In this document: positions 10,344 to 52,433 of the stretch, one piece after another
Numbering within the stretch: position 1 is the first letter of the stretch
Layout: the number at the start of each line of letters is the position of its first letter
From: Escherichia virus TH23
Sequence record: MT446397.1
Strand: one strand, 5' to 3'
Length of the DNA stretch: 52,433 nucleotides
The notes under the pieces: generated by a model
The model's database searches: none
Told to the model about the DNA's origin: nothing
Seen by the model: only the letters and a program-made list of their open reading frames with translations
Translations under genes and position numbers: made by a program

Positions 10344-11290
10344 TTGAACAGTCTTCCTTTAACCGAGGACAGTGGAGATTCAAGTTTGGCAAGTTTGTCT
10401 TTCAACGTACCAAGTTGACTCACTGCCGTAGCACCTACTGCACCCAGACCTGGGAGAGATATGCCAGCACCACCGAGAGCACCTATTCCAGCACTTTGAG
10501 CAATCTTCCCAAACTCAGAGTAGTCTGTCATGGATTGCATTGCTTTACGTGCTTCGATTGCCAATGTATCTTCACCAATAACCTGCAATTCTTCCAGCGT
10601 GATTTCAACAGCCAGTATCGCAGAAGTCATCTTGTCAGTCTTAGTTCGAATGCCTGTTACTACGCAATTCAAATAAGGCCCAATGATGGTGGAGATGTAC
10701 AGCTTGGTTCCGGTCGAACGGAAGTTGTTGAACAAATCATAGGTAGACTGAATTCGGTTGCTTGTTTCAAATGCAGAAGCAACAGCACCAGCAGCAGCAC
10801 CAATGATTGGGATGATTGGGTTATTAAAGATTGCACCAGTGGCAACAGATAAACCCTGAACAGAAGCAGTCCACATTGCAGCGTTCTGCATGTTTGTTGC
10901 AACAGCAGTTAGCTTTAGGATTCGGTTCTGTTTGATGATGTGGTCACTTACCATGAAGCCCGAACTTACAGGGAACTTGGTAACGACTGATTGAGCATCA
11001 TGCTCTTCACTAACCATTGCATCAAACTTAAAAGAGTTGAAGCTCTCTGGAACCGAAGACATAACAAGGGATTCCATTGTCTTGGCAATGCCGCCAAAGG
11101 CTTTACCAAACAATCCTTCATCTTCTTTCTGAACCGATGGGCCATTTGACCACATGATTACAGATGGGTTATGCCCGTAGCTAAATGCTTTTGACAGGGA
11201 TGATAATCCATCCCCGATAAGACTTGTATCAATTAATGCCATTAGAAAGACTCCATAGCCATTCCACTGTTTAGGTAGGCTTGCTGCCAA
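10340..11290 (-). CDS. Hypothetical tail protein
   Basis: 316-aa ORF, A/G/S-rich, in tail operon. Confidence 0.3.
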   Translation of the reverse strand: MAASLPKQWNGYGVFLMALIDTSLIGDGLSSLSKAFSYGHNPSVIMWSNGPSVQKEDEGLFGKAFGGIAKTMESLVMSSVPESFNSFKFDAMVSEEHDAQSVVTKFPVSSGFMVSDHIIKQNRILKLTAVATNMQNAAMWTASVQGLSVATGAIFNNPIIPIIGAAAGAVASAFETSNRIQSTYDLFNNFRSTGTKLYISTIIGPYLNCVVTGIRTKTDKMTSAILAVEITLEELQVIGEDTLAIEARKAMQSMTDYSEFGKIAQSAGIGALGGAGISLPGLGAVGATAVSQLGTLKDKLAKLESPLSSVKGRLFK

Positions 11291-12348
11291 GCCGCTTCTT
11301 TACCGCCCATTGCAGTATTGCCACCAAGCATTGCAGTGATGGTTGTTTGGAAAACAGTTTCATGGGTTGAGCCATGATGGACAACTTCTGTAATGAAGTA
11401 TTTATCTTCCATCGCCCAACGGAACACGCTCTGGTCTGTGTTAAGAACAACACCCTTTCCAGTTACAGAGGTTACACCATTCGCCAGCAATTGTTCTCCC
11501 AACAAAGGAGATACATCAAGAATCATTCCTGGCTGATAACTCGCATTCAGAAATGTATTCAATGAATATGTTGCAATGCCAGCAATAGGATTCCCAATAA
11601 CCTGGTTGGCATCCAGCTTGATTGGTTCACGGTCTTTTGACATTCTATCTACAGCATCTTTGTTGCCGTAGGTATCTGGGAAGATTTGAATCTCACCAGT
11701 AGTTACAGAGAATAGTAAATTGTATTCTCCAAGCAGGGTTCGGAACTCTTCCAAGAATGTGTCATGGAATACTCGACCCAACTTCAACTGAGATTTGAAT
11801 ACAGACTCTTCAACACCAAAAGATGAAATAGTGGAGAAGCCGTAATCCGCACACATAGAACGAATGGCATCTTCCAACGTTGCACCATTTGGAATATCTT
11901 TCATCTGAGTAAATTCAGTAGATGCACCATAGGCTTTGGAGATGCAGAACAATTGTGTTACGTGTTCTGGAGGACGTCTGAATCCAACTGCGTTTGTTAC
12001 TATGCCAGAGAAGATTGTTGGGAGGATTTGACCAATCTCAATCCTTACTTCCGAATCAGCCTGACTTGGGCTTTGATACTTACTGTGACCAGCATTAACA
12101 ATGCGCTCGTCTTCATAGTATCCTGCACGAATTTCAATATACATATCACCATAGGACTTGTCTTGAAGGAATTTAACTTCATCAACGCCCAGGTTGTATA
12201 GAGTAATATCGGCAGTATCTGCGGGCCAACCAACAGTTGACCGGATGGTGAAATCAATCTTGTGCGCTTTAAACACAGACTTGGTTTCTGGGTCATCCTT
12301 TCTTGAGACAACTATCTCTATACCACGCATCCACGGCATGTTATACAC
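11242..12348 (-). CDS. Tail protein (possibly P2 gpD-like)
   Basis: 368 aa, immediately downstream of the tape-measure gene. Confidence 0.3.
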   Translation of the reverse strand: MYNMPWMRGIEIVVSRKDDPETKSVFKAHKIDFTIRSTVGWPADTADITLYNLGVDEVKFLQDKSYGDMYIEIRAGYYEDERIVNAGHSKYQSPSQADSEVRIEIGQILPTIFSGIVTNAVGFRRPPEHVTQLFCISKAYGASTEFTQMKDIPNGATLEDAIRSMCADYGFSTISSFGVEESVFKSQLKLGRVFHDTFLEEFRTLLGEYNLLFSVTTGEIQIFPDTYGNKDAVDRMSKDREPIKLDANQVIGNPIAGIATYSLNTFLNASYQPGMILDVSPLLGEQLLANGVTSVTGKGVVLNTDQSVFRWAMEDKYFITEVVHHGSTHETVFQTTITAMLGGNTAMGGKEAAWQQAYLNSGMAMESF

Positions 12349-12390
12349 CTATTGAAATTAATACATATTCAAATAATATTAAAGAGGAAT

Positions 12391-12408
12391 GCCGAGACGA
12401 ATCCCGGC
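12391..12408 (-). terminator. Weak hairpin followed by T-rich tract after the tape-measure gene (possible attenuator)
   Basis: gccgggattcgtctcggc on minus strand followed by attcctcttt; short stem. Confidence 0.2.
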
Positions 12409-12414
12409 ACTTTC

Positions 12415-15400
12415 TTATCTACGTTCCATTGCACCATTACCCATGTTGATTGTTTGGGTAACAGTTTGACCGTTCGGAGTTGACACGGTTGCAGACGCTT
12501 GCTTGTTGTTCACAGTAGCTTTGACTTCAACGTTAACTACAGTGGCCTGTGTCTGACCATAAGACAGTCCGTTTCTGGTGAAGCCAGTTGCACCTTCTGC
12601 GATAGAATCACCCTGAGAAGCCCATTCACGGTACTTCTTGACGCGGTTCTGTGCCTGTAGAGGAACAGCATTGAGCCAGTCGGTTCCGTGTTTGTTGATA
12701 GCATCATCAACAGTTCCAGCACCATCCGTATACGCCGCCATAGCCTTCTCAGCGTCACCATTATAACGCTTGAGCATTGCATCATAGTAGTCACGACCAA
12801 CGCGAGCACGTTCTTCCAGTGAGTTATCACGGGCAGGTTTAACGCCAAATCCTGGGTCACGGGAAGTTGAATCAAGAACCTGCATACGACCTTTGGCACC
12901 AGTCGGAGATGTAACCACCGAACCATCTGCGTTCAAATCGCGGTTCCCTGACTCTTCTCCTGCGATAAAGTCATATACCGTTCTGGTAGTATCAGCTAAA
13001 CCATTTGACGCTGTACGCGCTACTCTGGCCGCATCTCCACCTGCTTCGATAAATGAACTCCCGTATGATATTGCAGCTTGCGGGACTGCGTATCCTGGCA
13101 GCACCCCAGCACGCTCCGTCTGCGCTATTCCTAGCTGTGCAATACCATCGGCATACTGTGAGTTGGCACCACGGCTTACGTTCTCCTGAGCCTCGTTCAC
13201 GCTGTAATCTGTACGGTCATAGGCGCGAGCCATGCCATCCAGACCTGCCATCTCCATAGCGCCAGCGATACGAGCCTGACTCCAGCCCCGCTCCTGACCA
13301 CGTTCACGCATTACCCGCGCTAAGGCCACAGGGTCGCCCTGTGCCGCACGAATGTCGCCAATAGTGATAAGACCACGGGTTCCCTGAACGATGTTGACAG
13401 CGCCGCTAGGGTCGCCATTCAGGAGGGTGTTATAGGCACTATGTGTGGTTCGATTGAGTCGGCCAGCTTGTTGCTGATTAAGCCCCAACATCTCCAAGCC
13501 CTGTGACATGGAAGAATATTCATTAGGGTTATTGACACCAGCGTCTAAAGAGTTTCCGTAGAAATCGTTCAGACCTTCGAGCGCCTCGTTACCAATCTGG
13601 GTAGCACCGATAGCCATACCCGCCACACGTCCCCACGGGGTCATCATGAGGGCATTCATTGCACCATTGGATAGTGAGCCTATGCTACCGCCAGCTACGC
13701 CAGCAGCCAATGCGCCACCAGCACGACCGAAGTCATCTGAGAAGCTGCCACCAGTATTCCAACCACGACCGCCACCGCCACCGGAACCACCCCCACCAAT
13801 GCCATAACTACTAGCATCGAAGGTGTCCCAGAAGCCGCCACCACCGCCACGACCACCATTGTCCCCGAAGTCGGCATCTTGTCCACGCAGCTTATTTTCT
13901 TCCTGAGCAGCGAGGATACCTTTCTTGACAGATACTGCCATCAAGTCATTGCCAGTTGTGCTGTCAGAGCCTACGGCAGAGGCTGTGGCTTCCCCAACTC
14001 CAGCACTGGTACGGTTGCCTATGAATGGGTCATCGGCTGTACCAGCAGCGGCAGAGTAGCCACGCGTTGACTTCTGCTTAACATCCTTCCAGATACCATC
14101 GCCAGTCATTGCAGCACGAGCACCTTTGATTAAATCATCATTGGACAAGTCTGAATTAGCTTCAACAAACTCTCGACCAGCATTAAGACGACCAATAGTA
14201 GAATCAATCTTATCTTTGTTGCGTTCGTACCATCCCTCGTCCTTCTCAATCCATTCCGATACCGTCTTGTCTCCGATTGTCTGAGAGAACAATGCACGAC
14301 TACGGCCAGATACAAGCATGCCAAATTGAAGTTGGTCGAGATAGTCCTTATGCTCACCAGCAGACAGGTTAGAAAACTTCTTAGCCCTTTCAGGGTTCTT
14401 GTGTTCCCAAATCGCGTCATCACCGATAAGACCATCTGGGGAATACATGAACGACGGATAATTGTCATTTGTTATTGCGCCAGCTTGCTCAATGTCGAAT
14501 CCAAATTCTTTGGCGACACGGTTACGAGCAACTTCTTCCGTCCGATGACCTGCTTCGAACATTCGTTGAGTAAATTCACTTGGCCCCTTTCCGCGTTGTA
14601 GGCCAATCTTATCAACCATTGCAGCCCAGGGTCGGTTGTATTCATTGTTACCAAGAAACGAGCCAACAGTGGAACCAGTAATGTCATATTGCTTGCGGAA
14701 GTCTAACCATTCCTGAGTGCCCTGTTCCATGTTGTGATAACGGATTGGGCCTTCTTGCGGAGCTGGCTGTGGAGCAGAGTCCAAATTAGATATAGCAATG
14801 CTCTCACGACGAGAGCGAGCAGAGTTCCAACTTGTTGGAGAATCAAGTTGTGCAATAAACTCTGTTGAAGGACTTAATTCAGTAGGTCCAGTATTTCTTA
14901 AACGTTCAGCAGGGTCAAATGTTCGAGAAACTTCTGCCTCATTATATTGGTGAGCATTCTCAAGAACACCACGAATTGATGTACCAGAGTAACGAGGGTC
15001 GTCACCAATATCTTTCTTAAGGTTATCGTAACCGGAACGAACATCTGCAATGTCTGCATAACGAGAAGCAGAGTCCAGGATTAAATCTCTGTCAGAAGAT
15101 TGAGTGCGATATGCATTCATTCCTCTTTCAGCACCACCAGAATAAACCTTTGCCGCAGATTTAACTACGCCAGAAACATCTTGGTAGAGTGTCTTGCTTG
15201 CATCAGACCAACCTGGAGAACCAGACAAGGATGCAGATAGGGAATATTCAGACTTGATACCTCCACCAAATGAACCTATCGGAAGACCAGATGCGTTAAG
15301 AGGCTGTCGAGGATGCAGAATATCTCCAACAACAGATTCAGAACCAAGTTGAGGTAATGAATCCATGTATGAAAGTTTTGGCCCCGACTTATTTCCTACA

Positions 15401-16092
15401 TTCATTGCAGATACGGCAGCAACTTCTCGGAAGTTTTGCGGCAATTCTGATTCTAAACGTTTGGCTACACGATAAACATCTCGTGCATAGCGGTCTGGGT
15501 TGTCGTATTGTTCACGGTCAACATACATGTGAGCAAGATAGCCAAATGACTTGGCAATATCTCCACGGTTTGTGGAATATTCATCCATAATATTACCGGT
15601 ATAGTGTCCGGCAAGTTCAGGCATTATATCTTGATGACCTGCAAGAGTATCTCGCATGTACGAGTTAAGCATTCCCCAATGACCTTCCGGCTTGTTGGGG
15701 TTGGCTTTAGGCATGTGCATCCAAACATCATCAGCGGATACACCAAGTTGTTCCATGTATGCGTGAACTGCTTCTACATGGTGTCCTGGTCCGTTCATTG
15801 CAGCATGGAATGTTTCAGTCAGCCCAGCGCCAGAAATCATCTGTGCTATATGTGCTGCATCTGAAATCATATCAGAAGTCCCGTATGAAGTTTCATCCTC
15901 ATACATCTGGGAATCTGGTTCGCCCAAAAGCTGTGAATTTGTTTCCATCCAACCTGACGCAGCACTTGATTCAAGTTGCTGGGCCATATCTCGTTTGCGC
16001 ATACCAGGATTGAAGGACAGACCGTACTGAGCACCCATGCCGATTAGTTCGGCCTCGGATAGCTTCATTAAATCTTTTAAGTTCTTAGCCAT
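12415..16092 (-). CDS. Tape-measure-like large tail protein with an internal YqaJ-type nuclease-like segment, a glycine-rich tract and a C-terminal lytic transglycosylase (SLT) domain
   Basis: 1225 aa between chaperone and baseplate genes; QGTQEWLDFR...YSPDGLIGDDAIWEHKNP resembles the YqaJ/lambda-exonuclease motif; GGRGGGGGF...GGGGSGGGGGRG tract; ESGNRDLNADGSVVTSPTGAKGRMQV resembles the SLT catalytic region. Confidence 0.55.
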   Translation of the reverse strand: MAKNLKDLMKLSEAELIGMGAQYGLSFNPGMRKRDMAQQLESSAASGWMETNSQLLGEPDSQMYEDETSYGTSDMISDAAHIAQMISGAGLTETFHAAMNGPGHHVEAVHAYMEQLGVSADDVWMHMPKANPNKPEGHWGMLNSYMRDTLAGHQDIMPELAGHYTGNIMDEYSTNRGDIAKSFGYLAHMYVDREQYDNPDRYARDVYRVAKRLESELPQNFREVAAVSAMNVGNKSGPKLSYMDSLPQLGSESVVGDILHPRQPLNASGLPIGSFGGGIKSEYSLSASLSGSPGWSDASKTLYQDVSGVVKSAAKVYSGGAERGMNAYRTQSSDRDLILDSASRYADIADVRSGYDNLKKDIGDDPRYSGTSIRGVLENAHQYNEAEVSRTFDPAERLRNTGPTELSPSTEFIAQLDSPTSWNSARSRRESIAISNLDSAPQPAPQEGPIRYHNMEQGTQEWLDFRKQYDITGSTVGSFLGNNEYNRPWAAMVDKIGLQRGKGPSEFTQRMFEAGHRTEEVARNRVAKEFGFDIEQAGAITNDNYPSFMYSPDGLIGDDAIWEHKNPERAKKFSNLSAGEHKDYLDQLQFGMLVSGRSRALFSQTIGDKTVSEWIEKDEGWYERNKDKIDSTIGRLNAGREFVEANSDLSNDDLIKGARAAMTGDGIWKDVKQKSTRGYSAAAGTADDPFIGNRTSAGVGEATASAVGSDSTTGNDLMAVSVKKGILAAQEENKLRGQDADFGDNGGRGGGGGFWDTFDASSYGIGGGGSGGGGGRGWNTGGSFSDDFGRAGGALAAGVAGGSIGSLSNGAMNALMMTPWGRVAGMAIGATQIGNEALEGLNDFYGNSLDAGVNNPNEYSSMSQGLEMLGLNQQQAGRLNRTTHSAYNTLLNGDPSGAVNIVQGTRGLITIGDIRAAQGDPVALARVMRERGQERGWSQARIAGAMEMAGLDGMARAYDRTDYSVNEAQENVSRGANSQYADGIAQLGIAQTERAGVLPGYAVPQAAISYGSSFIEAGGDAARVARTASNGLADTTRTVYDFIAGEESGNRDLNADGSVVTSPTGAKGRMQVLDSTSRDPGFGVKPARDNSLEERARVGRDYYDAMLKRYNGDAEKAMAAYTDGAGTVDDAINKHGTDWLNAVPLQAQNRVKKYREWASQGDSIAEGATGFTRNGLSYGQTQATVVNVEVKATVNNKQASATVSTPNGQTVTQTINMGNGAMERR

Positions 16093-16260
16093 TGTCTTCT
16101 TCTTTAGGTTTTAGTTCATTACGCAAATCAAGTATTGCGTGGAAAGTTAACAAATCCATAATAGAGTAGGTCCCGTCCGAGAGTTCTTTAAGAGAACAGA
16201 GAGAACTGTCCTCTATTACAGGACGGTGCAGGAAGTATTTTATTTCCGGGAACTTCTGAG

Positions 16261-16719
16261 TTAAATCGTTTCCGGACTCGAATTCTTCTGCTCGGCCATT
16301 TTGGATGCTTCCACCGCCTCCAATTGTCTGCGTTCGTTGAGTTCGAGCCCTTGCTTGAAAAAATCAAGGAAGTTCGATTCAAGAACAAATGCAAACACAT
16401 GGTGCATGAGCATTAAATTGCCGTTGTACTTCATCTGCATAGTGCGTGGATTAACTTCGACACCATCAATGGTTGCCATACACACTACACGTTTAATTAA
16501 TTCTGTTACTTCCGTATGAGTTCCACCCTGCTGCATCAAATGAATAATGTCTGCAAAGTTATATTTGTTCTCAACGAATGGGAATATCGAAATACCGAGT
16601 TTCTGAACAAGCTCGACTTGGAGGTCAAGAGCTTGGCTGGCACCGAGTTGTCGCGTACCAACCAAGACTGTCTCACCAGAGTCGGCTTGTAACTCGCGTT
16701 GGCGAAGTTCACAAGCCAT
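16261..16719 (-). CDS. Tail assembly chaperone (possible frameshift extension into 16188..16400)
   Basis: 152 aa between tube and tape-measure genes; an overlapping ORF in another frame covers its 3' end. Confidence 0.4.
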   Translation of the reverse strand: MACELRQRELQADSGETVLVGTRQLGASQALDLQVELVQKLGISIFPFVENKYNFADIIHLMQQGGTHTEVTELIKRVVCMATIDGVEVNPRTMQMKYNGNLMLMHHVFAFVLESNFLDFFKQGLELNERRQLEAVEASKMAEQKNSSPETI

Positions 16720-16733
16720 GCTCTTACCTTATA

Positions 16734-17189
16734 TTAAACGCCGATTTCTGGATACTGGCCAGTCACGATGGTGAGGCGTTCTACAAACACAGCCCACATA
16801 TTCGAAGTGAAGGTTACACCACGAACGATTGCTGGCTGTTGCAGAATTGCACCGTTGACACCGTTAACCAGTACGTCACCCATCTTGTCAACCAATTGCA
16901 ACTGCAAAGGTTCCCAGAGGGATTTGTTACCAGACAAACCAGTTGCACGAGTAAGCTGTGCACGTTGGTAAAGGATTTCGTTCCAGTCTGCCGTTTGCAG
17001 CAGTGGGAAAGTGATAACCCCAGACTGGTCAGCAGTGGTTGCTACAGCAAGTTTGCCGTAAGCATCCATAACAGGAACATGCTGTGGCACGTTGTAGCGT
17101 GCCGTAATTACAGATTGCCCTGCCTGAAAACCGTCTACACGAGCACCGTCAATCAGGAGGTCTGTATTATAAAACGAATATTGCTTCAC
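16734..17189 (-). CDS. Tail tube protein
   Basis: 151 aa immediately downstream of sheath gene. Confidence 0.5.
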   Translation of the reverse strand: MKQYSFYNTDLLIDGARVDGFQAGQSVITARYNVPQHVPVMDAYGKLAVATTADQSGVITFPLLQTADWNEILYQRAQLTRATGLSGNKSLWEPLQLQLVDKMGDVLVNGVNGAILQQPAIVRGVTFTSNMWAVFVERLTIVTGQYPEIGV

Positions 17190-17198
17190 TGTTCACCC

Positions 17199-18647
17199 TT
17201 ACTGAATGAAGTTGCCAGAGATTACAGCACCCTGGATTGCACCGGAACCGATAGCAATAAAGGAAGTACCTTCCCAAATACGTTCACCCTTCTGCGACTG
17301 CAAGAGTTCTAACGGAGTAGAAATAACTTTGTAGCCTTCTGGATAGAAGACGCCTTCGTTATCATAGCCAGGGGCAATGAGGCCGTTAGTCTTAGCGAGT
17401 TCGAGCGCCAGGGTTACTTGCTGGTTAACCATTGCTACACCAGTGTCCGTCCAAGGAATCTTGGTAGTGGAGGTGTAGAACAAGTTGAACACGTTCAGTC
17501 GAACTTTCTGAGTCAGCCATTCAACACCTTGTACGGAGTCGAACCATGTGCCGTCAGCCATACGACCGTTGTAGAACATTACGTTGCCAGCAACAGAAAT
17601 GAATGCGTTACCACCACAAGAAAGCAGCGCACTTACCTGCCCAGAAGACAGGTCAGCAGTGGCGATACCTGGACCTTTCTTGTATGCCAGAATAAGAACA
17701 GAGTTTGCAACGTTAAAGTTAACAGTTGATGCACGACCCAGGATAGAAATTTCCGGATATTCATCACCATTCGCAGAAGCATCGTAAACACACAGAGTGT
17801 TACGCAGGTTCTGGTTCTTAGCACGACGGAAGCTGTTATCAGTGCCGTTGATAAGAATGTTCTTGTCGTTATCACCCCAGCCAAATACTTTGCTGGATGC
17901 TTCACACCACTTCGCCACAGACATTTGGTTGTCTACTGGAGAGGTTTTGCCACGATACTGGCGGTCAAGGCCCACATAGAAGAAGTTGAATGGAGCATCT
18001 GCAATATTAGACAAGTCGGAAGAAATGGATAGCTCGTTCTTACCAGCAACAATAACTGCGCTGTCAGAAGATTGCAGTTTCAGTACTTCACCAACTTTAC
18101 CACCAACGTTGCTGATAGTTGCGTTGATGCCAGTTGCAGAAGTGGTCAGCTTGAACTTGCCAGCTTCCTGAGTAACAGTTACGCCAGCACCAACAGAAGA
18201 TAGTGCAGTAGTTACTAGAGTTGCAACTTCTTCGAAGTCAGCAGCAGCAGAGAAATCAATCGGGTCAGTAACATACTGAACACCGCTAACACTTAACTGC
18301 ATGGTTGCAGCAGTTTCCAGCTTAATGGTTGCCAATACAGCAGCAGTTGCAGCAGTAACAGTGGCAGGAGTTGCTGGAGTCAAAGTATCGTACTTGATAG
18401 CACCAACCAGGAAAGTCTTCGGAGTTGGCTTCTGCGAGTACCAAGAGGTAGCAGCTTTAGCAATCTCACCACCAGGGAAGTCTGCGAGAACTTCTTTCAA
18501 ACTGGTATAGGAACGAACCGGATATACATCAACGGTCGGTACAAACTCTTTGCTCATAAAGAGCAATGGCCCAAAACCATCGGTCGCAATGGCGTTCGGG
18601 GAGATTGCGATATCAACCTGAACTAAATCAGAAATTGGGATTGACAT
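17199..18647 (-). CDS. Contractile tail sheath protein
   Basis: 482 aa; size, composition and position before the tube gene. Confidence 0.55.
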   Translation of the reverse strand: MSIPISDLVQVDIAISPNAIATDGFGPLLFMSKEFVPTVDVYPVRSYTSLKEVLADFPGGEIAKAATSWYSQKPTPKTFLVGAIKYDTLTPATPATVTAATAAVLATIKLETAATMQLSVSGVQYVTDPIDFSAAADFEEVATLVTTALSSVGAGVTVTQEAGKFKLTTSATGINATISNVGGKVGEVLKLQSSDSAVIVAGKNELSISSDLSNIADAPFNFFYVGLDRQYRGKTSPVDNQMSVAKWCEASSKVFGWGDNDKNILINGTDNSFRRAKNQNLRNTLCVYDASANGDEYPEISILGRASTVNFNVANSVLILAYKKGPGIATADLSSGQVSALLSCGGNAFISVAGNVMFYNGRMADGTWFDSVQGVEWLTQKVRLNVFNLFYTSTTKIPWTDTGVAMVNQQVTLALELAKTNGLIAPGYDNEGVFYPEGYKVISTPLELLQSQKGERIWEGTSFIAIGSGAIQGAVISGNFIQ

Positions 18648-28510: not shown

Positions 28511-29258
28511 AACTTTCCTCGCTCTTGTCTGTGCGAAGGCGAACCAAAGAAGGGAAGCGGAATTTACCAGCTTCTGTCTTCTCACGATATCGAACTTGCA
28601 TAATCGAACCAACTAGCTCGTTACGATGTTCCCACAACCACTTACGGATTGCGGTGTTTGATTCTGGAATACCGTGGTCTGCCAGACAATCTTTCACCAT
28701 TGAGCCAGCACTGCCGTAGTTAGAAGAGATAGAGCCACACATACCTTTGAGAGCACCAGTACCTTCTTTCATACCAGTAATCTTCACATCGGCGTATTTG
28801 TATGGTACAATCTTCCACCACTTACCTTTTGCATCTCGGACGATAATACCCTCATGACCAAGCGCCAGATATTTATCCATCAATGCCTTAAGGTTTTCAT
28901 TGCTTGGGTCCTTGCACCAGCCGATGTACAGGCGTGGGTCAACAGCACCATCACTCAACTCATACACGTTTTCTTGAGTTAGTGCGACCGTAGGCGGGTC
29001 AATACGACCGAGGATGCTAGAAGTCTCATTCCAACTATTACGGAATATCTCAGCATCTCTGAACTCCAGGTGCGATAAATGAGGTAAGGGTTTGGAATTA
29101 CGACTCCAGACACCACCTGCTTTATTACGGATAGCTCGAATTCCGTCAATCTTGATGAAGAGTTCGCAGCGTCCTTTGATTTGGCAGTCTGGGTCTTCCC
29201 AATCATGAGCATGGGCCTTCGTATATTTTGTACCATCATCGAGAAGCTTAATAGTCAT
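28503..29258 (-). CDS. Small ATP-dependent DNA ligase-like nucleotidyltransferase
   Basis: 251 aa; motif I KIDGIR, motif IV-like EGIIVRDAKGKW. Confidence 0.5.
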   Translation of the reverse strand: MTIKLLDDGTKYTKAHAHDWEDPDCQIKGRCELFIKIDGIRAIRNKAGGVWSRNSKPLPHLSHLEFRDAEIFRNSWNETSSILGRIDPPTVALTQENVYELSDGAVDPRLYIGWCKDPSNENLKALMDKYLALGHEGIIVRDAKGKWWKIVPYKYADVKITGMKEGTGALKGMCGSISSNYGSAGSMVKDCLADHGIPESNTAIRKWLWEHRNELVGSIMQVRYREKTEAGKFRFPSLVRLRTDKSEESFD

Positions 29259-29772
29259 TAAGATTCAGTCTCAAGTATTCTCGGACAGCATTCTTACGTC
29301 CGATTTTGGTTTTAGGGATTGGGTCAATCTTGGCGAGTTTGCACTTAGCAATTTGCTCGTCATCTTTCAATTTGGCGAATGCAATACACTTCTTCTCTAT
29401 GACTGCATCTCTACGAGATACCCCATATCGTTCCATGTATGTTATGATGCCATGACAATCATGACACAACAGTTCCAAATCTTCCGGCTGAACCAATAGA
29501 AGGTTGTCCACAAAACGGTGAAGGTCTTCCAGCTTAAGGAGTCCTCCAACCTGTTTCTTGTGGTTCACTTCAATCTCTTTCAACTTATACAGTTTCTTAC
29601 AGTGATAGCACTGAATGTGGAATATTGGTTTGTTGGATGTACCAACTTTCAACGCCACACGTCGAGCCTGGATAAGAGATAGCTTGCTTGGATGTTTAGA
29701 CCAAACACTGCGAATAGCAGACTGGAGCCAAGAAACAAACTTGGCTTCCGTACCGCAATAACCGTAAGCCAT
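29248..29772 (-). CDS. HNH endonuclease
   Basis: 174 aa; CYHCKK...HDCHG cysteine/histidine pattern. Confidence 0.45.
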   Translation of the reverse strand: MAYGYCGTEAKFVSWLQSAIRSVWSKHPSKLSLIQARRVALKVGTSNKPIFHIQCYHCKKLYKLKEIEVNHKKQVGGLLKLEDLHRFVDNLLLVQPEDLELLCHDCHGIITYMERYGVSRRDAVIEKKCIAFAKLKDDEQIAKCKLAKIDPIPKTKIGRKNAVREYLRLNLNDY

Positions 29773-29783
29773 TTCAACTCCAA

Positions 29784-30845
29784 TTATTTCTGGAGATACT
29801 CTGCATGAGGGATTATACGGTTCTCTTTAAGATGGAATCGGTCGATGACACCTTTATAGTGCCACAAGCGAACGAGGTTTCCATCATCAATTTGGTGATG
29901 CATGTACACGAGTCGGCCAACTTTGAGAAGTTCTTCTTCCCAACCGTCTCCGAATCGCATGATAAATGCACCAATAACTTTCTTCAAACCTTCTGCATAA
30001 GAAGTGGTCTTATCCAAAAGTTCGAAAGATTCGACAGCACCGACACCGCTTCGACGGAAGTATGTTTCTCCAGCCTTGGCACCAGTCTTGTAAATCTTCT
30101 CTTCCAGAACACCACAACCCATAACGTTATCCGTTGAGTCGCCGATAAGAAGTTGATGCAAGAAGAATTTAGGGCCACAGCCTTTGACTTCTTTCTTCTT
30201 AGATTTACCGTTGTCTTTGATAATTAATTTGAGTTCACCATAATCCTTCGGGATTACAATCTTCTCACCAATGTTCTGAGATTCACGTTCCCATTGGTAG
30301 TGCTTGATTACTGGACCAGTGTCGCCGAATTGTCCGATTTGGCGCAAGTCTTTGTCAAGCGACGCAATCCAAACTTCATCATATGTGCACGGACCAATAC
30401 GCGTGAGGCTCTTAATCTCATTACGTTTACCCATTGTTGCTTCGTATTCATGACGGGCGAATACAGCCAGAAGGTCATCTGCTTCCAGACCCTTCATCCA
30501 CATTCCGTTCCATGCAACCATGAGATGTGCTTTCGCATTCTTAAGGTTTTCTGGACGCCATACGCCATCACGGTTGCCCTTATAATCAGGAGCAAATTCG
30601 TTGCGCATGGTTTTGGATGGTGAAATGAAAGTAATTACTTCTGTAGCACCAGCACGTTTGGCGAGGAATTCCATTTTAGAATCCATCGACATTTGAATCT
30701 TAGCAAAGTTAATATCTTCGGGGTCTTTGCCGTGCTCTTCAGCAGCACAGTGGCTGAATGCAACCATGTCGCCGTCTACCAGCAACAATACTCGTTTCTT
30801 ACTCACTTTGGTAAGCTCCAAACTAAAGGCTCCCGAAGGAGCCAA
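29784..30845 (-). CDS. 5'-3' exonuclease / flap endonuclease (T5 D15 / T4 RNase H family)
   Basis: 353 aa; LLLVDGDMVAF and EADDLLA acidic motifs. Confidence 0.65.
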   Translation of the reverse strand: MAPSGAFSLELTKVSKKRVLLLVDGDMVAFSHCAAEEHGKDPEDINFAKIQMSMDSKMEFLAKRAGATEVITFISPSKTMRNEFAPDYKGNRDGVWRPENLKNAKAHLMVAWNGMWMKGLEADDLLAVFARHEYEATMGKRNEIKSLTRIGPCTYDEVWIASLDKDLRQIGQFGDTGPVIKHYQWERESQNIGEKIVIPKDYGELKLIIKDNGKSKKKEVKGCGPKFFLHQLLIGDSTDNVMGCGVLEEKIYKTGAKAGETYFRRSGVGAVESFELLDKTTSYAEGLKKVIGAFIMRFGDGWEEELLKVGRLVYMHHQIDDGNLVRLWHYKGVIDRFHLKENRIIPHAEYLQK

Positions 30846-45105: not shown

Positions 45106-45483
45106 TTAGAATGGAATATCGTCGTCGAAGTCTTTCGGCTCGTTCGGATTGTAGTTACTGTTCTGCGTCTGTTGCTGAATAGGTGCTTGCTGTTGTGCAG
45201 CAGGTTGCTGGCGTTGCTGTTGCTGTTGAGCAGCAGCTTGAGGTTGAGCTTTGGCTTTAGCTTTCTCTTCACGCTTACGCATCATTTCATCAACTTGTTC
45301 TTGGGTCATGATGGTGAGTGCCAGCGAGGTAAATTCATTACCATTGGCTTGCTTGTTCCAACCAGACACCCAATACCAGATTCCGTCAACGTTAATACGT
45401 CCACGAACGTCAGGATGTTTTGGGTCTTTCTTAAAGCCATTGGAACCGATGATGCCAGTGTTTACGTCTGAATATTGTGCCAT
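45106..45483 (-). CDS. Small protein with Q/P/A-rich linker and C-terminal DFDDDIPF (SSB-tail protein; minimal SSB or SSB-tail decoy)
   Basis: 125 aa; last eight residues equal the E. coli SSB C-terminal peptide; N-terminal region about 70 aa (GRINVDGIWYWVSGW); conserved motif about 80 nt upstream. Confidence 0.5.
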   Translation of the reverse strand: MAQYSDVNTGIIGSNGFKKDPKHPDVRGRINVDGIWYWVSGWNKQANGNEFTSLALTIMTQEQVDEMMRKREEKAKAKAQPQAAAQQQQQRQQPAAQQQAPIQQQTQNSNYNPNEPKDFDDDIPF

Positions 45484-49782: not shown

Positions 49783-51897
49783 TTATTGACAGAAGTAGTA
49801 AGCGTGTTCGCTCATCAGAAGCTCTTCGGTTACGATGTTCTCATGATACATCTGAATGCCACCAAGTTGCTTAGACAGATTCTCGAATTGATTGTTGGTT
49901 ACGAAGATTTCAACATATGCTGCACGAATAACTTCCATCATTTTAGGAGCATCAGCTAAGCAGCAACGGAAACAATCATGGATTGAAGTAAAGCCACGAA
50001 GACCAGCTTCTTTAGCTTTGACTGCAACAGTACGAGCAACCAATGCGTCAATACCTTGAATGTAGTTAACAACGAAGGTACGTTTGAATTCCTCTTTAGT
50101 TGGATTGGACTCACGAATGGTCCAAGGCTTATTCTCCTGAATCTGACCAAAGATGACACGAGTTTGAGAGTCAACACGAATGCTGAATGCATCACAAACA
50201 TCACGAGATGGGAAGCAAGGTTTCATTACAACTTGACCATCAGTGTGCTTATATGTGATGTACTCTTTGTTGAGTTCAACACAACGAGCAAATGCAGCAT
50301 CAGCAGCTTTCTCGATGAACATGTTAATCTTAGCACCCAATGCGTTATGGATTGCTTCAACACAAAGTTCAGCAAATGCTTCGGCTTTCTCCATAGGAAT
50401 CTGGAGAGCTTCTGTCATGTATGCGGTGAAATCAGAAGAACCAGTCAATGCAGCTTTACCACCACCATATTGGATAGCCATGTATGGAGTTTTGATAAAC
50501 TTACGACCAGCTTTCGGATTCAAGAATTCATCCATAATTTCAGCGGATGGTTTCATTGAAGAACGGTCAAGCAACTTCAACAGTTCACGAAGAGATAACT
50601 GGTATGGGTCAGATGCTTTAGTCTCAGAATCAACCAGACCTGTAGCACGAGCCATTTCCATGTTACCAGCAATGAATGCCAAGTATTGGGTACCAGAACA
50701 TTTAGCATCTAAGCCAAAGCCTACACGAGAATCACACTCACCTGTAGTCTCAAACTTGAACCAATCCAGAGCCAGACGAACATAAGTGAATGGCTTAGAA
50801 GGACGCTCACCTTTAGGCATGTTCAGCATACGAGCCAAAGAACCAGCAGGATTCTGTGCAACATAAGTTAAACGTTTTGCAGAAGTCCAGTCTCCACCAG
50901 CAATATCTTCCAGCTCAAGCATGAACATGTTGTATGCCAGAGTTGTTGAGCCATCATCATTAAACTTGCTCACAGTGTTCTCAACATTGTGGGAATACAG
51001 GCAACGAGCAAAGTCGGATGATTGTGGGTTAGGACCAGCACATGCTACATGATACAAACGACCACGGTTATCAGCAAAGTAGTCAGAGAACAGAGTGTCC
51101 TGCCCAACCATTGCTACAGCATTGTTCCAAACATGGAGTTCAGTCTGGATTGCTTCTGGCATCTGTAAGCCACCAAAGGTACGTTGTTCTAACATGGAAG
51201 AGATAACCTTAACCATTGTTGCATCAACGTGATATTCAGTATCTTGCAGGAATTCGATTGCAGCTTTCAGAGTCTTGGATGGCTTAACTTTGCCACCTTT
51301 AACGAAAGGCTTGCGACGAGATTCAGTTGTTACACGCTCAGTGAATGGAACTGAGGTATCTTTGGTTGTAACCAGCTCAACCCATGCATCAGTCATCTGG
51401 AACGATTTGTCCTCGTTCATGGTGATGAAACCGAAGTGCTTAGCTAAACCAATGAGGTTGATAGCTGGGTCAACATAGTGCATTGCTTTCAGGTCGTTGT
51501 TATAACGGTTGGCATCAGCAATAGAAGCAGAAGCCAGCTCGACCATTGCAATGGCTGGGACAACATCATCACGAGTGAATGACGTCATCATCTTGAAGAT
51601 TGCAAGAGCAGCAATAGCACAGGTCTGAGGCTGCATGTAATTCTGTTTCTCTTTGGCACGGTATACCAGAGCCGTGATAGCAGGGACAACGGATTTGATA
51701 GTTTGAGTTGAGATAGTTGTCATTTTGCGAGTCTCCAAGTTAGTTTCGGTTTTAGTTTCGGATTGTGTAGCAGCAGTGATTTCGTCAACCATTTGGTTGC
51801 AACGGTCCATCGTATCAAGCACGTCTTTCCAACCGTGGCCTTCTTCTTTTAAGCGAGCGCCATCAGCAGCCAGTGCGCGATATTCTTCGTTAGTCAT
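49783..51897 (-). CDS. Single-subunit T7-like DNA-dependent RNA polymerase (small, 704 aa)
   Basis: Motif A FGLDAKCSGTQYLAF (T7 FDGSCSGIQHF), motif B RKFIKTPYMAIQYGGG (T7 RSVTKRSVMTLAYGS), motif C FTSIHDCF...ADAPKM (T7 ALIHDSF...ADAANL); GGAG Shine-Dalgarno. Confidence 0.85.
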   Translation of the reverse strand: MTNEEYRALAADGARLKEEGHGWKDVLDTMDRCNQMVDEITAATQSETKTETNLETRKMTTISTQTIKSVVPAITALVYRAKEKQNYMQPQTCAIAALAIFKMMTSFTRDDVVPAIAMVELASASIADANRYNNDLKAMHYVDPAINLIGLAKHFGFITMNEDKSFQMTDAWVELVTTKDTSVPFTERVTTESRRKPFVKGGKVKPSKTLKAAIEFLQDTEYHVDATMVKVISSMLEQRTFGGLQMPEAIQTELHVWNNAVAMVGQDTLFSDYFADNRGRLYHVACAGPNPQSSDFARCLYSHNVENTVSKFNDDGSTTLAYNMFMLELEDIAGGDWTSAKRLTYVAQNPAGSLARMLNMPKGERPSKPFTYVRLALDWFKFETTGECDSRVGFGLDAKCSGTQYLAFIAGNMEMARATGLVDSETKASDPYQLSLRELLKLLDRSSMKPSAEIMDEFLNPKAGRKFIKTPYMAIQYGGGKAALTGSSDFTAYMTEALQIPMEKAEAFAELCVEAIHNALGAKINMFIEKAADAAFARCVELNKEYITYKHTDGQVVMKPCFPSRDVCDAFSIRVDSQTRVIFGQIQENKPWTIRESNPTKEEFKRTFVVNYIQGIDALVARTVAVKAKEAGLRGFTSIHDCFRCCLADAPKMMEVIRAAYVEIFVTNNQFENLSKQLGGIQMYHENIVTEELLMSEHAYYFCQ

Positions 51898-51999: not shown

Positions 52000-52433
52000 C
52001 GTGCTCTGATTGCCTTTGACCTTGACCCACTACCTAACTTGGTGTTGATTGAAAGCCGATAGGCTATAGGAAAAAGTTGGGGTAGGGACCGTATTTAAGT
52101 CCGATAGGACGTTGGGCTTCCCCTCCTCGGAGATAAAATTTTAAAAATAATAATGACACAACTTCCCCCCCCCCGCCACCTCAAAAATAAAATAATATCG
52201 CCACAATTCTAGTCTCATTAATATTGAAACAATTCGAGTCTCATTAATTCCGTAGCAATATTTAAATTAAAAAAAAAATTATATAAAATTTTTATAACAT
52301 AGTCGGGCTTCTGTTCGAACAAATTTCGGCTAGATACAGCTGACCGATTGTGAACGAGTCTATGTCCAGATACAGTTGACCGATCATTTACCATTTGGTT
52401 TGAACTTTACGCATTCCTAATATTACTTTAAAT
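52000..52433. repeat. Direct terminal repeat, right copy
   Basis: Matches 1..433 with one extra C in the poly-C run. Confidence 0.85.

Follow-up and report, generated by a model that had tools for sequence, protein, structure and literature searches.

The tail and ejection proteins closest to the one described here carry enzymes directed at the envelope only. The tape measure proteins of T5 (Pb2) and of mycobacteriophage TM4 have embedded cell-wall hydrolase domains, and T7 gp16 is a long ejected protein with an SLT domain. The "evolved" VgrG, Hcp and PAAR nucleases of the T6SS are effector domains fused to an injection machine, and Mu N and T4 gp2 are injected with the genome and act on its ends, shielding them from RecBCD. 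SPP1 G34.1P, together with G35P, is a phage recombination exonuclease that processes terminally redundant genomes. Lambda Red, reviewed in PMC7496540, belongs beside it in chemistry, in that both convert double-strand ends to 3' tails for single-strand annealing. Lambda Exo and LHK-Exo, which are 5'->3' alkaline exonucleases of PF09588, assemble into toroidal trimers, load at double-strand ends and act preferentially where there is a 5'-phosphate (PMC7496540, PMC3239189).

The protein studied here resembles each of these systems in part. It shares the fold and the catalytic E/D/E/K residues of lambda Exo and LHK-Exo, but these enzymes are free-standing proteins of ~200-330 aa, whereas the nuclease domain described here occupies residues 450-665 within a virion protein of 1225 aa. 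Like T7 gp16 it is a long protein with an SLT domain, matched here by profile and by fold, but in contrast to T7 gp16, T5 Pb2 and TM4 it holds a DNA-directed enzyme as well, and this enzyme is more conserved than the SLT domain. The exonucleases of SPP1 and lambda Red, of the same enzyme family and with the chemistry proposed here, are made as early genes after entry with a dedicated annealase, whereas the embedded nuclease would come with the virion. Mu N and T4 gp2 are end binders without nuclease chemistry, whereas protection here would be achieved by enzymatic conversion of the ends. As with T6SS effectors and AFP/PVC cargo (PMC8718954), an enzyme payload is physically coupled to the inner part that a contractile tail expels; those payloads are toxins against the target cell, however, whereas a lambda-Exo-type nuclease is end-dependent and not obviously toxic to a circular chromosome.

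The window, meaning the whole 52,433-nucleotide stretch that was analyzed (Escherichia virus TH23, MT446397.1), is from the genome of a Chaseviridae (phiEcoM-GJ1-like) coliphage, a myovirus. The open reading frame at 12415..16092 on the minus strand begins with ATG, encodes 1225 residues and is present exactly as the initial annotation had given it, and its proposed tape-measure position is borne out by gene order. The sheath gene (17199-18647) and the tube gene (16734-17189) are followed by a tail assembly chaperone (16261..16719, minus strand; phrog_11820, E=3e-58), which lies directly upstream of the 1225-aa reading frame, and the baseplate hub gene (11242-12348) comes after it. Three-frame translation and comparison with phiEcoM-GJ1 gp61 show a conserved -1-frame reading frame (16085..16363, minus strand) that overlaps the 3' end of the chaperone gene and reaches the start of the 1225-aa frame. 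To judge from sequence, this is likely a G/GT-type frameshift extension of the chaperone, a hallmark of the tape-measure slot. The same order of sheath, tube, chaperone with extension, long reading frame and hub is found in remote relatives, in which Pfam Phage_TAC_15 occupies the chaperone slot. The protein matches phrog_19855 ("virion structural protein") over its full length in a PHROG search, its orthologues include phiEcoM-GJ1 gp62, and the same domain architecture is found in ~90 orthologue clusters.

Alternatively, something else would set tail length, and the 1225-aa protein would be a baseplate-associated lytic protein or, like T7 gp16, an internal ejection ("core") protein. In keeping with this, a Pfam search found no match to a tape-measure family, and in AlphaFold2 (AF2) models the protein consists of several folded modules with disordered linkers between them, in place of the one long, unbroken helical rod that tape measure proteins typically have. 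Similarity to T7 gp16, and to "lytic tail" or virion proteins of ~600-750 aa from other phages, is seen in the C-terminal half, and GenBank annotations of the orthologues conflict, with the phiEcoM-GJ1 version named a "T4 gp5 analog" and that of 4HA13 a "tail tape measure protein". Against it stand the canonical slot, conserved in remote relatives, and the lack of any other long reading frame in the tail module that could be the tape measure; phiEcoM-GJ1 also has a separately annotated spike gene, gp66. In addition, a rough length check fits, with ~879 non-enzymatic residues at 0.15 nm each giving ~132 nm against reported tails of 110-130 nm. We regard this alternative as highly improbable. 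The 1225-aa protein is shown to be a virion protein of the tape-measure slot, built as modules like beads on a string.

The N-terminal region (residues 1-445; 14758..16092, minus strand) belongs to no known family, with no Pfam match even at E<=5, and is modeled by AF2 as a mainly helical fold at residues ~80-380 followed by a disordered linker at 383-446; 41 of 382 positions are invariant among orthologues. The nuclease domain comes next and is followed by a Gly/Ala-rich tract (residues ~690-835; 13588..14025, minus strand) that is predicted to be disordered (pLDDT below 50). The glycine-rich tract of the initial annotation is therefore confirmed, since residues 681-840 contain 26% Gly, along with 15% Ala. 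Within it, segment 789-836 (GGALAAGVAGGSIGS...GMAIGATQIG) is weakly hydrophobic, with a Kyte-Doolittle maximum of 1.0 at residue 794, and is a candidate membrane-interacting stretch. A highly conserved all-helical domain (residues ~840-990; 13123..13575, minus strand; AF2 pLDDT ~95) matched no Pfam family, and its residues 931-960 are the joint most conserved 30-residue window of the protein (0.81 identity). The C-terminal tail (residues ~1187-1225; 12418..12534, minus strand) has three predicted beta-strands in AF2 secondary structure at low pLDDT and possibly docks in the baseplate hub.

Between this all-helical domain and the tail lies an SLT-type (family 1) lytic transglycosylase domain (residues ~1040-1160; 12613..12975, minus strand), as had been proposed for the C-terminus. 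Pfam SLT (PF01464) matches residues 1060-1136 at E=7.9e-7, with 29.1 bits against a curated cut-off of 21.3, and profile matches include P. aeruginosa Slt, MltD, E. coli Slt70 and T7 gp16. Foldseek aligns the domain to MltD with an rmsd of 4.0 over 139 columns and a probability of 1.0. The motifs are nearly invariant among orthologues, with E1047-S1048 and Q1071 (in G-x-M-Q1071) each kept in 88 of 89 and A1120-Y1121 (in A-A-Y1121-x-x-G) in all 89. Motifs II and III align to Slt; the Glu-Ser motif falls just beyond the HMM-aligned region, so the equivalence of E1047-S1048 to the catalytic Glu-Ser is judged by position and conservation only. Across the SLT domain, 11.6% of positions are invariant.

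The central module (residues 450-665; 14098..14745, minus strand) is a YqaJ/lambda-exonuclease-type PD-(D/E)xK nuclease domain. The initial annotation had read such a segment from the letters QGTQEWLDFR (residues 457-466) and YSPDGLIGDDAIWEHKNP (residues 550-567) and had suggested a domain search over residues ~450-620, a check of catalytic D/E/K conservation and virion proteomics. Pfam, PHROG and PDB profile searches and Foldseek all agree with its reading. Pfam YqaJ (PF09588) matches residues 461-597 at E=2.9e-11, with 44.3 bits against a gathering cut-off of 22 and an alignment spanning profile positions 1-149 of 150. PHROG families of RecE-like exonucleases match residues 432-643 (best E 6.5e-21), phmmer against the PDB finds LHK-Exo (3syy) at E=4e-7, and a family profile against the PDB finds LHK-Exo at 2.7e-16 and lambda exonuclease at 7e-7. 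Matches at these E-values are far stronger than chance would give. By the stricter NCBIfam model TIGR03033 for the lambda-exonuclease family, the domain is a divergent member, scoring 47.4 bits, which is below the curated cut-off of 68.05, at E=2e-12 over profile positions 2-151 of 153. The AF2 model of residues 450-665 has a pLDDT of ~90-95, and in Foldseek it aligns to LHK-Exo (3sz4/3syy) with TM scores of 0.76-0.79 and to lambda Exo (1avq/3sm4) with 0.64-0.67, both at E ~1e-7.

Alignment to lambda Exo and conservation among orthologues locate the core catalytic motif, S551-P-D553-G ... E563-H-K565 (14398..14442, minus strand), whose S551, D553, E563 and K565 correspond to lambda S117, D119, E129 and K131. 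Upstream, W462, R466 and S474 correspond to lambda W24, R28 and S35, and E519 to E85; downstream, Q587 corresponds to Q157. By the roles described for lambda Exo (PMC7496540, PMC3239189), E519, D553, E563 and K565 (lambda E85, D119, E129 and K131) are the catalytic residues, and W462, R466, S474, S551 and Q587 form the 5'-phosphate pocket of lambda type (W/R/S/S/Q), which RecE does not have. All nine residues, including the D/E/K set that was to be checked, are invariant in the 89 orthologues compared (39-99% identity). Another 14 long relatives were checked, ten of them remote (32-41% domain identity), and all 14 keep the E/D/E/K/Q set. The nuclease domain has the highest density of invariant positions of any module, 24% compared to 11.8% for the whole protein. 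Structural reuse of an inactivated domain, which had been raised as one reading, is disfavored by this combination of invariant catalytic and pocket residues with the strongest constraint in the protein, and the nuclease module, by sequence and model, does not have the appearance of a relic.

A related possibility is that the domain acts without catalysis, as a clamp on the 5'-phosphate end, holding the leading end of the DNA to the tape measure protein in a pilot function, or as a plug or spacer, with hydrolysis irrelevant in vivo. The invariant pocket residues would suit such a clamp, as would the location of the module, since the N-terminal half of a tape measure protein is the part nearest the DNA end in the tail, and virion-delivered end binders are known in Mu N and T4 gp2. 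Pure binding, however, would not require the metal-ligand and general-base residues E519, D553, E563 and K565 to be kept without exception in the 89 orthologues and the 14 further long relatives. The domain is also the most constrained module, and we consider a non-catalytic role very unlikely. In lambda Exo, the K131A variant retains DNA binding (PMC7496540).

As for the virion proteomics, published mass spectrometry of CsCl-purified virions of another phage, 4HA13, detected the orthologue P0038 (64% identical) at 64-67% peptide coverage, a whole-protein figure whose peptides are not mapped onto the nuclease domain. In-silico digestion sets a ceiling of 38-43% for the C-terminal half alone and 48% for the N-terminal half alone; as the observed coverage exceeds both, both halves of the 4HA13 orthologue are needed to account for it. 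The corresponding ceiling for a protein without the YqaJ domain is 54-68%. Some contamination of the preparation is possible, as a non-structural SSB is also present there. With regard to delivery, gpH of lambda acquires TurboID-ManZ label while injection is under way, and in Bas14 the tape measure protein can be crosslinked through its N-terminal region to a cytoplasmic domain of SNIPE (10.1101/2025.11.03.685801). By extrapolation from these siphovirus proteins the nuclease module would reach the cytoplasm; the behavior of myovirus tape measure proteins is less clear.

Taken with the apparently intact active site, these observations are consistent with a virion-delivered 5'->3' exonuclease that is active only after ejection and acts, most probably, on the terminally redundant ends of the phage's own genome, a tentative reading to which we give a probability of roughly 0.45. 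The protein would be expelled from the tail tube before the DNA, probably C-terminus first, as are other tape measure proteins; the SLT domain would open the peptidoglycan, the Gly/Ala-rich middle would engage the inner membrane, and the N-terminal half, beside the leading DNA end, would arrive at the cytoplasmic side. Tape measure proteins are reported to be possibly trimeric, and the tube lumen is ~40 A wide (PMC8718954). In the virion the nuclease would be idle, because a three-subunit ring of lambda-Exo type would be too big for the ~4 nm lumen and the chain is probably extended. After ejection, copies of the protein, probably three, would fold and assemble into a Mg2+-dependent, 5'-phosphate-guided 5'->3' double-strand exonuclease. 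Resection of the phage's own ends, preceding any phage gene expression, would expose 3' single-stranded repeats that could anneal to form circles or concatemers, and resected ends would be poor substrates for RecBCD. Long direct repeats make Chaseviridae genomes terminally redundant (PMC8472413); the repeat of 4HA13 is 3120 bp, and the window ends in one of 433 bp.

From its invariant Arg/Trp pocket, the nuclease should recognize 5'-phosphorylated ends, and at entry the DNA that most obviously offers a double-strand end of this kind is the incoming genome of the phage. The phage's own ends are ranked above host or competing DNA because enzymes of this type require a double-strand end. The same property bears on the idea, raised in the initial annotation, that the ejected nuclease acts on host or competing DNA. 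As an offensive effector it would attack the host chromosome, plasmids, prophages, co-infecting phage genomes or DNA-based defense components in order to clear competitors or begin host takeover, and its closest analogs would be the nuclease effectors fused to spike or tube proteins of the T6SS. In favor of this, the nuclease is conserved, looks intact and is virion-associated, and AFP and PVC particles offer a precedent for cargo in the lumen of a contractile tail (PMC8718954). Chromosomes and most plasmids are circular, however, and no endonuclease domain is fused to the protein that could create the free, preferably 5'-phosphorylated ends on which such an enzyme acts; few copies would be delivered per virion, and the nuclease would need to leave intact the phage ends that enter along with it. 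An offensive role is therefore unlikely.

Several observations count against end resection of the phage's own genome as well. In its canonical role a lambda-Exo works with an annealase, the two proteins together making up a recombinase, but no annealase (Red-beta, RecT, Erf or Sak) was found in the replication and early reading frames scanned with Pfam and PHROGs, which showed only a small SSB gene (45106-45483), and the neighbors of the 1225-aa frame are tail genes with no adjacent annealase. A T7 gp6-like 5'->3' exonuclease gene (29784-30845) could already serve recombination. Exposing its own genome to a processive exonuclease would also be risky for the phage, and no mechanism that limits resection is evident.

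Finally, the nuclease might act in the producer cell at a late stage of infection, for instance in recombination, in processing of replication or packaging intermediates or in scavenging of host DNA, with its presence in the virion a by-product of the fusion. Large amounts of the protein would be made in the cytoplasm, with Mg2+ and DNA ends present, before tail assembly; no separate lambda-Exo-type gene was detected among the reading frames tested, and the fusion is ancient and stable. In an exhaustive search, the long proteins examined among the matches (10 of 10) all belonged to the family of the 1225-aa protein, and the remainder of the best 150 matches were mostly free-standing exonucleases. 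In a neighbor-joining tree built from 167 domains, the 30 copies taken from long proteins all fell in a single clade, which contained no free-standing member, and the fusion therefore probably arose once. Against a producer-cell role, it is hard to explain why a soluble enzyme would be kept family-wide in the middle of a 1225-aa structural protein with no free-standing copy. A newly made tape measure protein is normally held by its chaperone, and the T7 gp6-like exonuclease is already there for replication and recombination. We find this role quite unlikely compared to delivery of an end-resecting exonuclease with the virion.

A nuclease inside an ejected tail protein had been called unusual in the initial annotation, and the search results support this, with the long proteins examined among the matches all from one family; a literature search found no paper describing a nuclease and a cell-wall-cutting domain in one tape measure protein. 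The tail protein of this family pairs a wall-cutting domain with an apparently intact DNA-degrading domain of the lambda-exonuclease type.

The open reading frame at 12415..16092, on the minus strand like all genes in the window, was confirmed to encode a protein of 1225 amino acids. The gene is 100% identical to that of Escherichia viruses TH28 and TH33 and 97% identical to that of Yersinia phage PYps23T, and its product shares 66-68% identity with gp62 of Escherichia phage phiEcoM-GJ1. The latter phage is the founding member of the Chaseviridae, myoviruses whose RNA polymerase and replication module are T7-like. Minus-strand genes found in the window include those for an RNA polymerase (49783-51897), a primase/helicase (33972-35735), a DNA polymerase (31971-33905) and a T7 gp6-like exonuclease (29784-30845). 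An HNH endonuclease gene (29248-29772, minus strand; phrog_1985, E=4e-58), flanked by the genes for this exonuclease and a DNA ligase, may be a homing endonuclease gene that has inserted into the replication module.

The initial annotation had described the product of 12415-16092 as a protein in the tape-measure position with a YqaJ segment, a glycine-rich tract and a lytic transglycosylase (SLT) domain, a description that proved correct by Pfam, PHROGs, composition and gene order. The genes run in the order sheath, tube, tail assembly chaperone, tape-measure-slot gene and baseplate hub, and the full-length protein matches phrog_19855 'virion structural protein'. A conserved -1-frame open reading frame (16085-16363, minus strand) overlaps the chaperone gene at its 3' end and extends 8 nt into the tape-measure-slot gene; it has a protein-level counterpart, in an identical arrangement, in phiEcoM-GJ1 gp61. 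This frame is likely a programmed-frameshift extension of the chaperone, the usual neighbour ahead of a tape measure gene; an obvious slippery heptamer was not seen at the overlap. This gene order speaks against the rival view that the protein is not a tape measure; in favour of that view, GenBank names for the orthologues are inconsistent (tail fiber, tail tube initiator, tape measure, virion structural, hypothetical protein).

Two AF2 models depict a beads-on-a-string layout, in which a helical N-terminal region (residues ~80-380) and a disordered linker (383-446) precede the predicted nuclease domain (450-665; pLDDT ~90-95 with the orthologue alignment as input). The N-terminal 445 residues are without a Pfam family or an informative Foldseek match. 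The nuclease domain is followed by a long disordered glycine-rich tract (glycine makes up 26% of residues 681-840) with a weakly hydrophobic Gly/Ala segment at 789-836. Between this tract and the SLT domain (residues ~1040-1160) is a highly conserved all-helical domain (residues 840-990, window 13123-13575, minus strand; pLDDT ~95), for which there was likewise no Pfam family and no informative Foldseek match, and three beta-strands are predicted at the C-terminus. The entire protein contains no cysteine. GC content is 0.509 and GC skew -0.13 in window 12001-14000, as against ~0.44 GC elsewhere in the genome, and this interval matches the position of the gene's Gly/Ala-rich C-terminal half. 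The GC excess is probably a codon-composition effect, with a separate origin of the C-terminal half as an alternative that may apply.

Several lines of evidence identify the central domain. Pfam YqaJ (PF09588) scores 44.3 bits on residues 461-597 (cut-off 22), RecE-like exonuclease families in PHROGs cover residues 432-643, and a family profile matches LHK-Exo (E=2.7e-16) and lambda exonuclease (E=7e-7). Foldseek comparison of the AF2 model gave TM scores of 0.76-0.79 to LHK-Exo and 0.64-0.67 to lambda Exo. The sole negative on domain identity was NCBIfam TIGR03033, whose score fell below its strict cut-off. In the profile alignment, lambda W24, R28, S35, E85 and S117 correspond to W462, R466, S474, E519 and S551, and lambda D119, E129, K131 and Q157 correspond to D553, E563, K565 and Q587. 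All nine of these residues are invariant in an alignment of 89 full-length orthologues with 39-99% identity. They include the equivalents of E85, D119 and K131 of the lambda Exo active site, as well as those of W24, R28, S35, S117 and Q157, the residues of a 5'-phosphate pocket that confers on lambda Exo its preference for phosphorylated ends and that RecE does not have (PMC7496540, PMC3239189). Invariant positions amount to 24% of the nuclease domain, compared with 11.8% of the whole protein and 11.6% of the SLT domain, and the 30-residue segment that contains SPDG...WEHK ties as the most conserved in the whole protein.

From these alignments and models, we concluded that the domain belongs to the lambda-Exo branch of PD-(D/E)xK nucleases, as a divergent member that looks catalytically competent. 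The expectation that a domain search would return YqaJ was thus borne out, with a Pfam match above cut-off and the catalytic residues unchanged in 89/89 orthologues, while the suggestion of an inactivated domain reused structurally is disfavoured, as the catalytic residues are kept and the domain is strongly constrained. Degeneration was rejected on residue conservation in orthologues and remote relatives alike and on the constraint on the module, and an annotation or frameshift artefact was rejected on the presence of the domain, in frame and flanked by conserved sequence, in all orthologues. A non-catalytic clamp on DNA ends is a rival reading that would share the phosphate-pocket residues with an exonuclease; the equivalents of the active-site residues are just as invariant. 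Overall, we assign a probability of roughly 0.85 to the reading that a protein of the virion, encoded in the tape-measure slot, carries a nuclease domain of active type.

The SLT assignment is supported by a Pfam match (PF01464, residues 1060-1136, 29.1 bits against a cut-off of 21.3) and by resemblance, in both profile and fold, to Slt, MltD, Slt70 and the T7 ejection protein gp16. The profile matches in the PDB came from a 14-sequence profile, and a phmmer search of the PDB with the SLT segment alone gave no match. Conserved positions in the orthologue alignment include E1047-S1048, Q1071 and A1120-Y1121; because the Glu-Ser motif lies outside the aligned block, the catalytic equivalence of E1047-S1048 is only inferred. 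In BFVD, other phages have 'lytic tail' or virion proteins of ~600-750 aa that resemble, over their whole length, the C-terminal half of the protein, which suggests that the N-terminal 700 residues, nuclease included, were added to a lytic virion-protein core of wider distribution.

In order to trace the fusion, residues 431-660 were searched exhaustively with phmmer against 1.84 billion representative proteins, yielding 1081 matches; a word-indexed homologue search with the domain alone had recovered none of the orthologues, just 14 free-standing YqaJ proteins. After the orthologues came a second tier of long proteins (962-1534 aa) carrying the domain internally at 32-41% identity, and the remainder of the best 150 of the 1081 matches were mostly either free-standing, at ~200-330 aa, or proteins of 500-590 aa with the domain at the N-terminus. 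Each of the six second-tier proteins scanned matched phrog_19855 and four of the six had a C-terminal SLT domain, those checked fully kept the E/D/E/K/Q set, and two were found in a genomic context of terminator, sheath, tube, chaperone, small ORF, the protein itself and baseplate genes. In a neighbour-joining tree of 167 domains, built without bootstrap, the long-protein copies (30/30) form one clade with no free-standing member inside. The simplest reading of these sequence comparisons is one ancient fusion, retained since; a recent mobile insertion was rejected, the domain being monophyletic and present in all orthologues. Two side observations concern individual records. One remote orthologue lies in two bacterial contigs of chromosome size (GCA_002206365.2, 4.8 Mb; GCA_016103045.1, 1.6 Mb), accompanied by a full set of head and tail genes; these loci look like prophage relatives of a family that is considered strictly lytic. 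A 67%-identical orthologue of Gram-negative type, with SLT, is found in PP952070.1, 'Staphylococcus phage Pel53', labelled a Staphylococcus hyicus phage, likely through host mis-assignment or contamination.

Evidence for presence in the virion comes from phage 4HA13, whose 'tail tape measure protein' is 64% identical to the TH23 protein. Published LC-MS/MS of CsCl-purified 4HA13 particles detected this 128,217-Da protein with 64% and 67% coverage, among the strongest signals. In-silico tryptic digestion set coverage ceilings of 38-43% for the C-terminal part alone, 48% for the N-terminal part alone and 54-68% for the protein without the nuclease domain. The observed coverage therefore requires both halves in the 4HA13 virion, and nuclease-domain peptides are almost certainly present as well. 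A role for the nuclease in the producer cell is a rival reading. The 4HA13 preparation was not perfectly clean, since a non-structural single-strand DNA-binding protein (SSB; 13 kDa, 62% coverage) was also detected. Its counterpart in the window is the small SSB at 45106-45483 (minus strand; phrog_7364, E=8e-43). The SSB could be a contaminant, or conceivably it is co-packaged with the nuclease-bearing tail protein.

As tape measure proteins do, the protein would leave the tail tube before the DNA. Siphovirus lambda gpH is proximity-labelled by TurboID-ManZ during injection, and in Bas14 the tape measure protein touches, through its N-terminal region, a cytoplasmic domain of the host nuclease SNIPE (10.1101/2025.11.03.685801), so that parts of tape measure proteins reach the cytoplasmic face; by analogy with these siphoviruses, we infer cytoplasmic delivery for the present myovirus protein. 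Lambda Exo and LHK-Exo are toroidal trimers that thread a double-strand end (PMC7496540, PMC3239189), and tape measure proteins may reportedly be trimers, the lumen of the tube being ~40 A wide (PMC8718954). At 216 residues the globule has roughly the width of the lumen, which a ring of three would exceed; within the virion the enzyme would thus have to stay unassembled and hence silent. At entry, the phage genome would be the obvious DNA with a 5'-phosphorylated double-strand end, and resection of the phage's own ends is therefore favoured over an offensive nuclease directed against other DNA. Ends resected in this way would be readied for annealing and would be poor RecBCD substrates before any phage gene is expressed. 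Against own-end resection stand the lack of an annealase partner in the scanned open reading frames, the presence of a separate T7 gp6-like exonuclease, the reliance on siphovirus precedents for cytoplasmic delivery by a myovirus and the obvious risk of a processive nuclease acting on its own genome. We hold the full chain, a virion-delivered exonuclease resecting the phage's own ends, as a tentative proposal at a little under even odds.

The genome ends are relevant to this proposal. The window ends in a 433-bp direct repeat (1-433 and 52000-52433), 100% identical bar a 1-nt register shift. The repeat lies immediately upstream of the RNA polymerase gene and early region, and may be either a true, short direct terminal repeat or an overlap left by circular assembly. 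Genomes of Chaseviridae carry long direct repeats and are terminally redundant (PMC8472413); in 4HA13 the repeat measures 3120 bp. The TH28 record (MT446402.1, 'UNVERIFIED') was dropped for measuring terminal repeats, as its ends match only at 90-96% (first 3.8 kb vs last 3.8 kb); it begins mid structural module and looks like a mixed-population or chimeric circular assembly, not a true terminal repeat. A more specific version of own-end resection, which we regard as unlikely, has the nuclease domains of three expelled chains come together as a lambda-Exo-like ring where the injection channel opens into the cytoplasm, coupling entry to end-resection. The leading genome end would thread directly into the pre-positioned exonuclease, converting the terminal repeat to a 3' single-stranded tail that would be poor for RecBCD and could anneal with the other repeat, giving circularisation and end protection without gene expression.

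Tape measure proteins are usually viewed as rulers, sometimes with cell-wall hydrolases. Embedded enzymes in tape measure and ejection proteins are known; in the present protein the embedded enzyme is a predicted DNA-directed one. Database pipelines already place both Pfam domains on these proteins (precomputed YqaJ and SLT are both present in most of the 89 orthologues, ~10 showing just one), and the GenBank note for phiEcoM-GJ1 gp62 mentions a transglycosylase only. No description of a nuclease domain in a tape measure protein was found in the open-access literature, an absence that is not proof; the nearest report, on SNIPE, concerns a host nuclease that targets tape measure proteins, not a phage nuclease (10.1101/2025.11.03.685801). 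These phages, in development for E. coli, Erwinia and Pectobacterium biocontrol, have inconsistently annotated tape measure genes, and the coliphages among them are easily grown, leaving the question open to direct testing by point mutants. An apparently intact, strongly constrained exonuclease domain in the tape measure protein family-wide points to a DNA-processing enzyme delivered with the genome. The ring arrangement, if true, would make this the first tape measure protein with a DNA-directed catalytic activity to its name and would define a new class of virion-delivered 'first-responder' DNA-processing enzymes. If the enzyme is active at entry, it would bear on how genomes with terminal redundancy withstand RecBCD and are made ready for replication before any phage gene is expressed, on how deeply tape measure proteins penetrate the cell, and on how an enzyme is kept silent in the tail tube and refolds after ejection.
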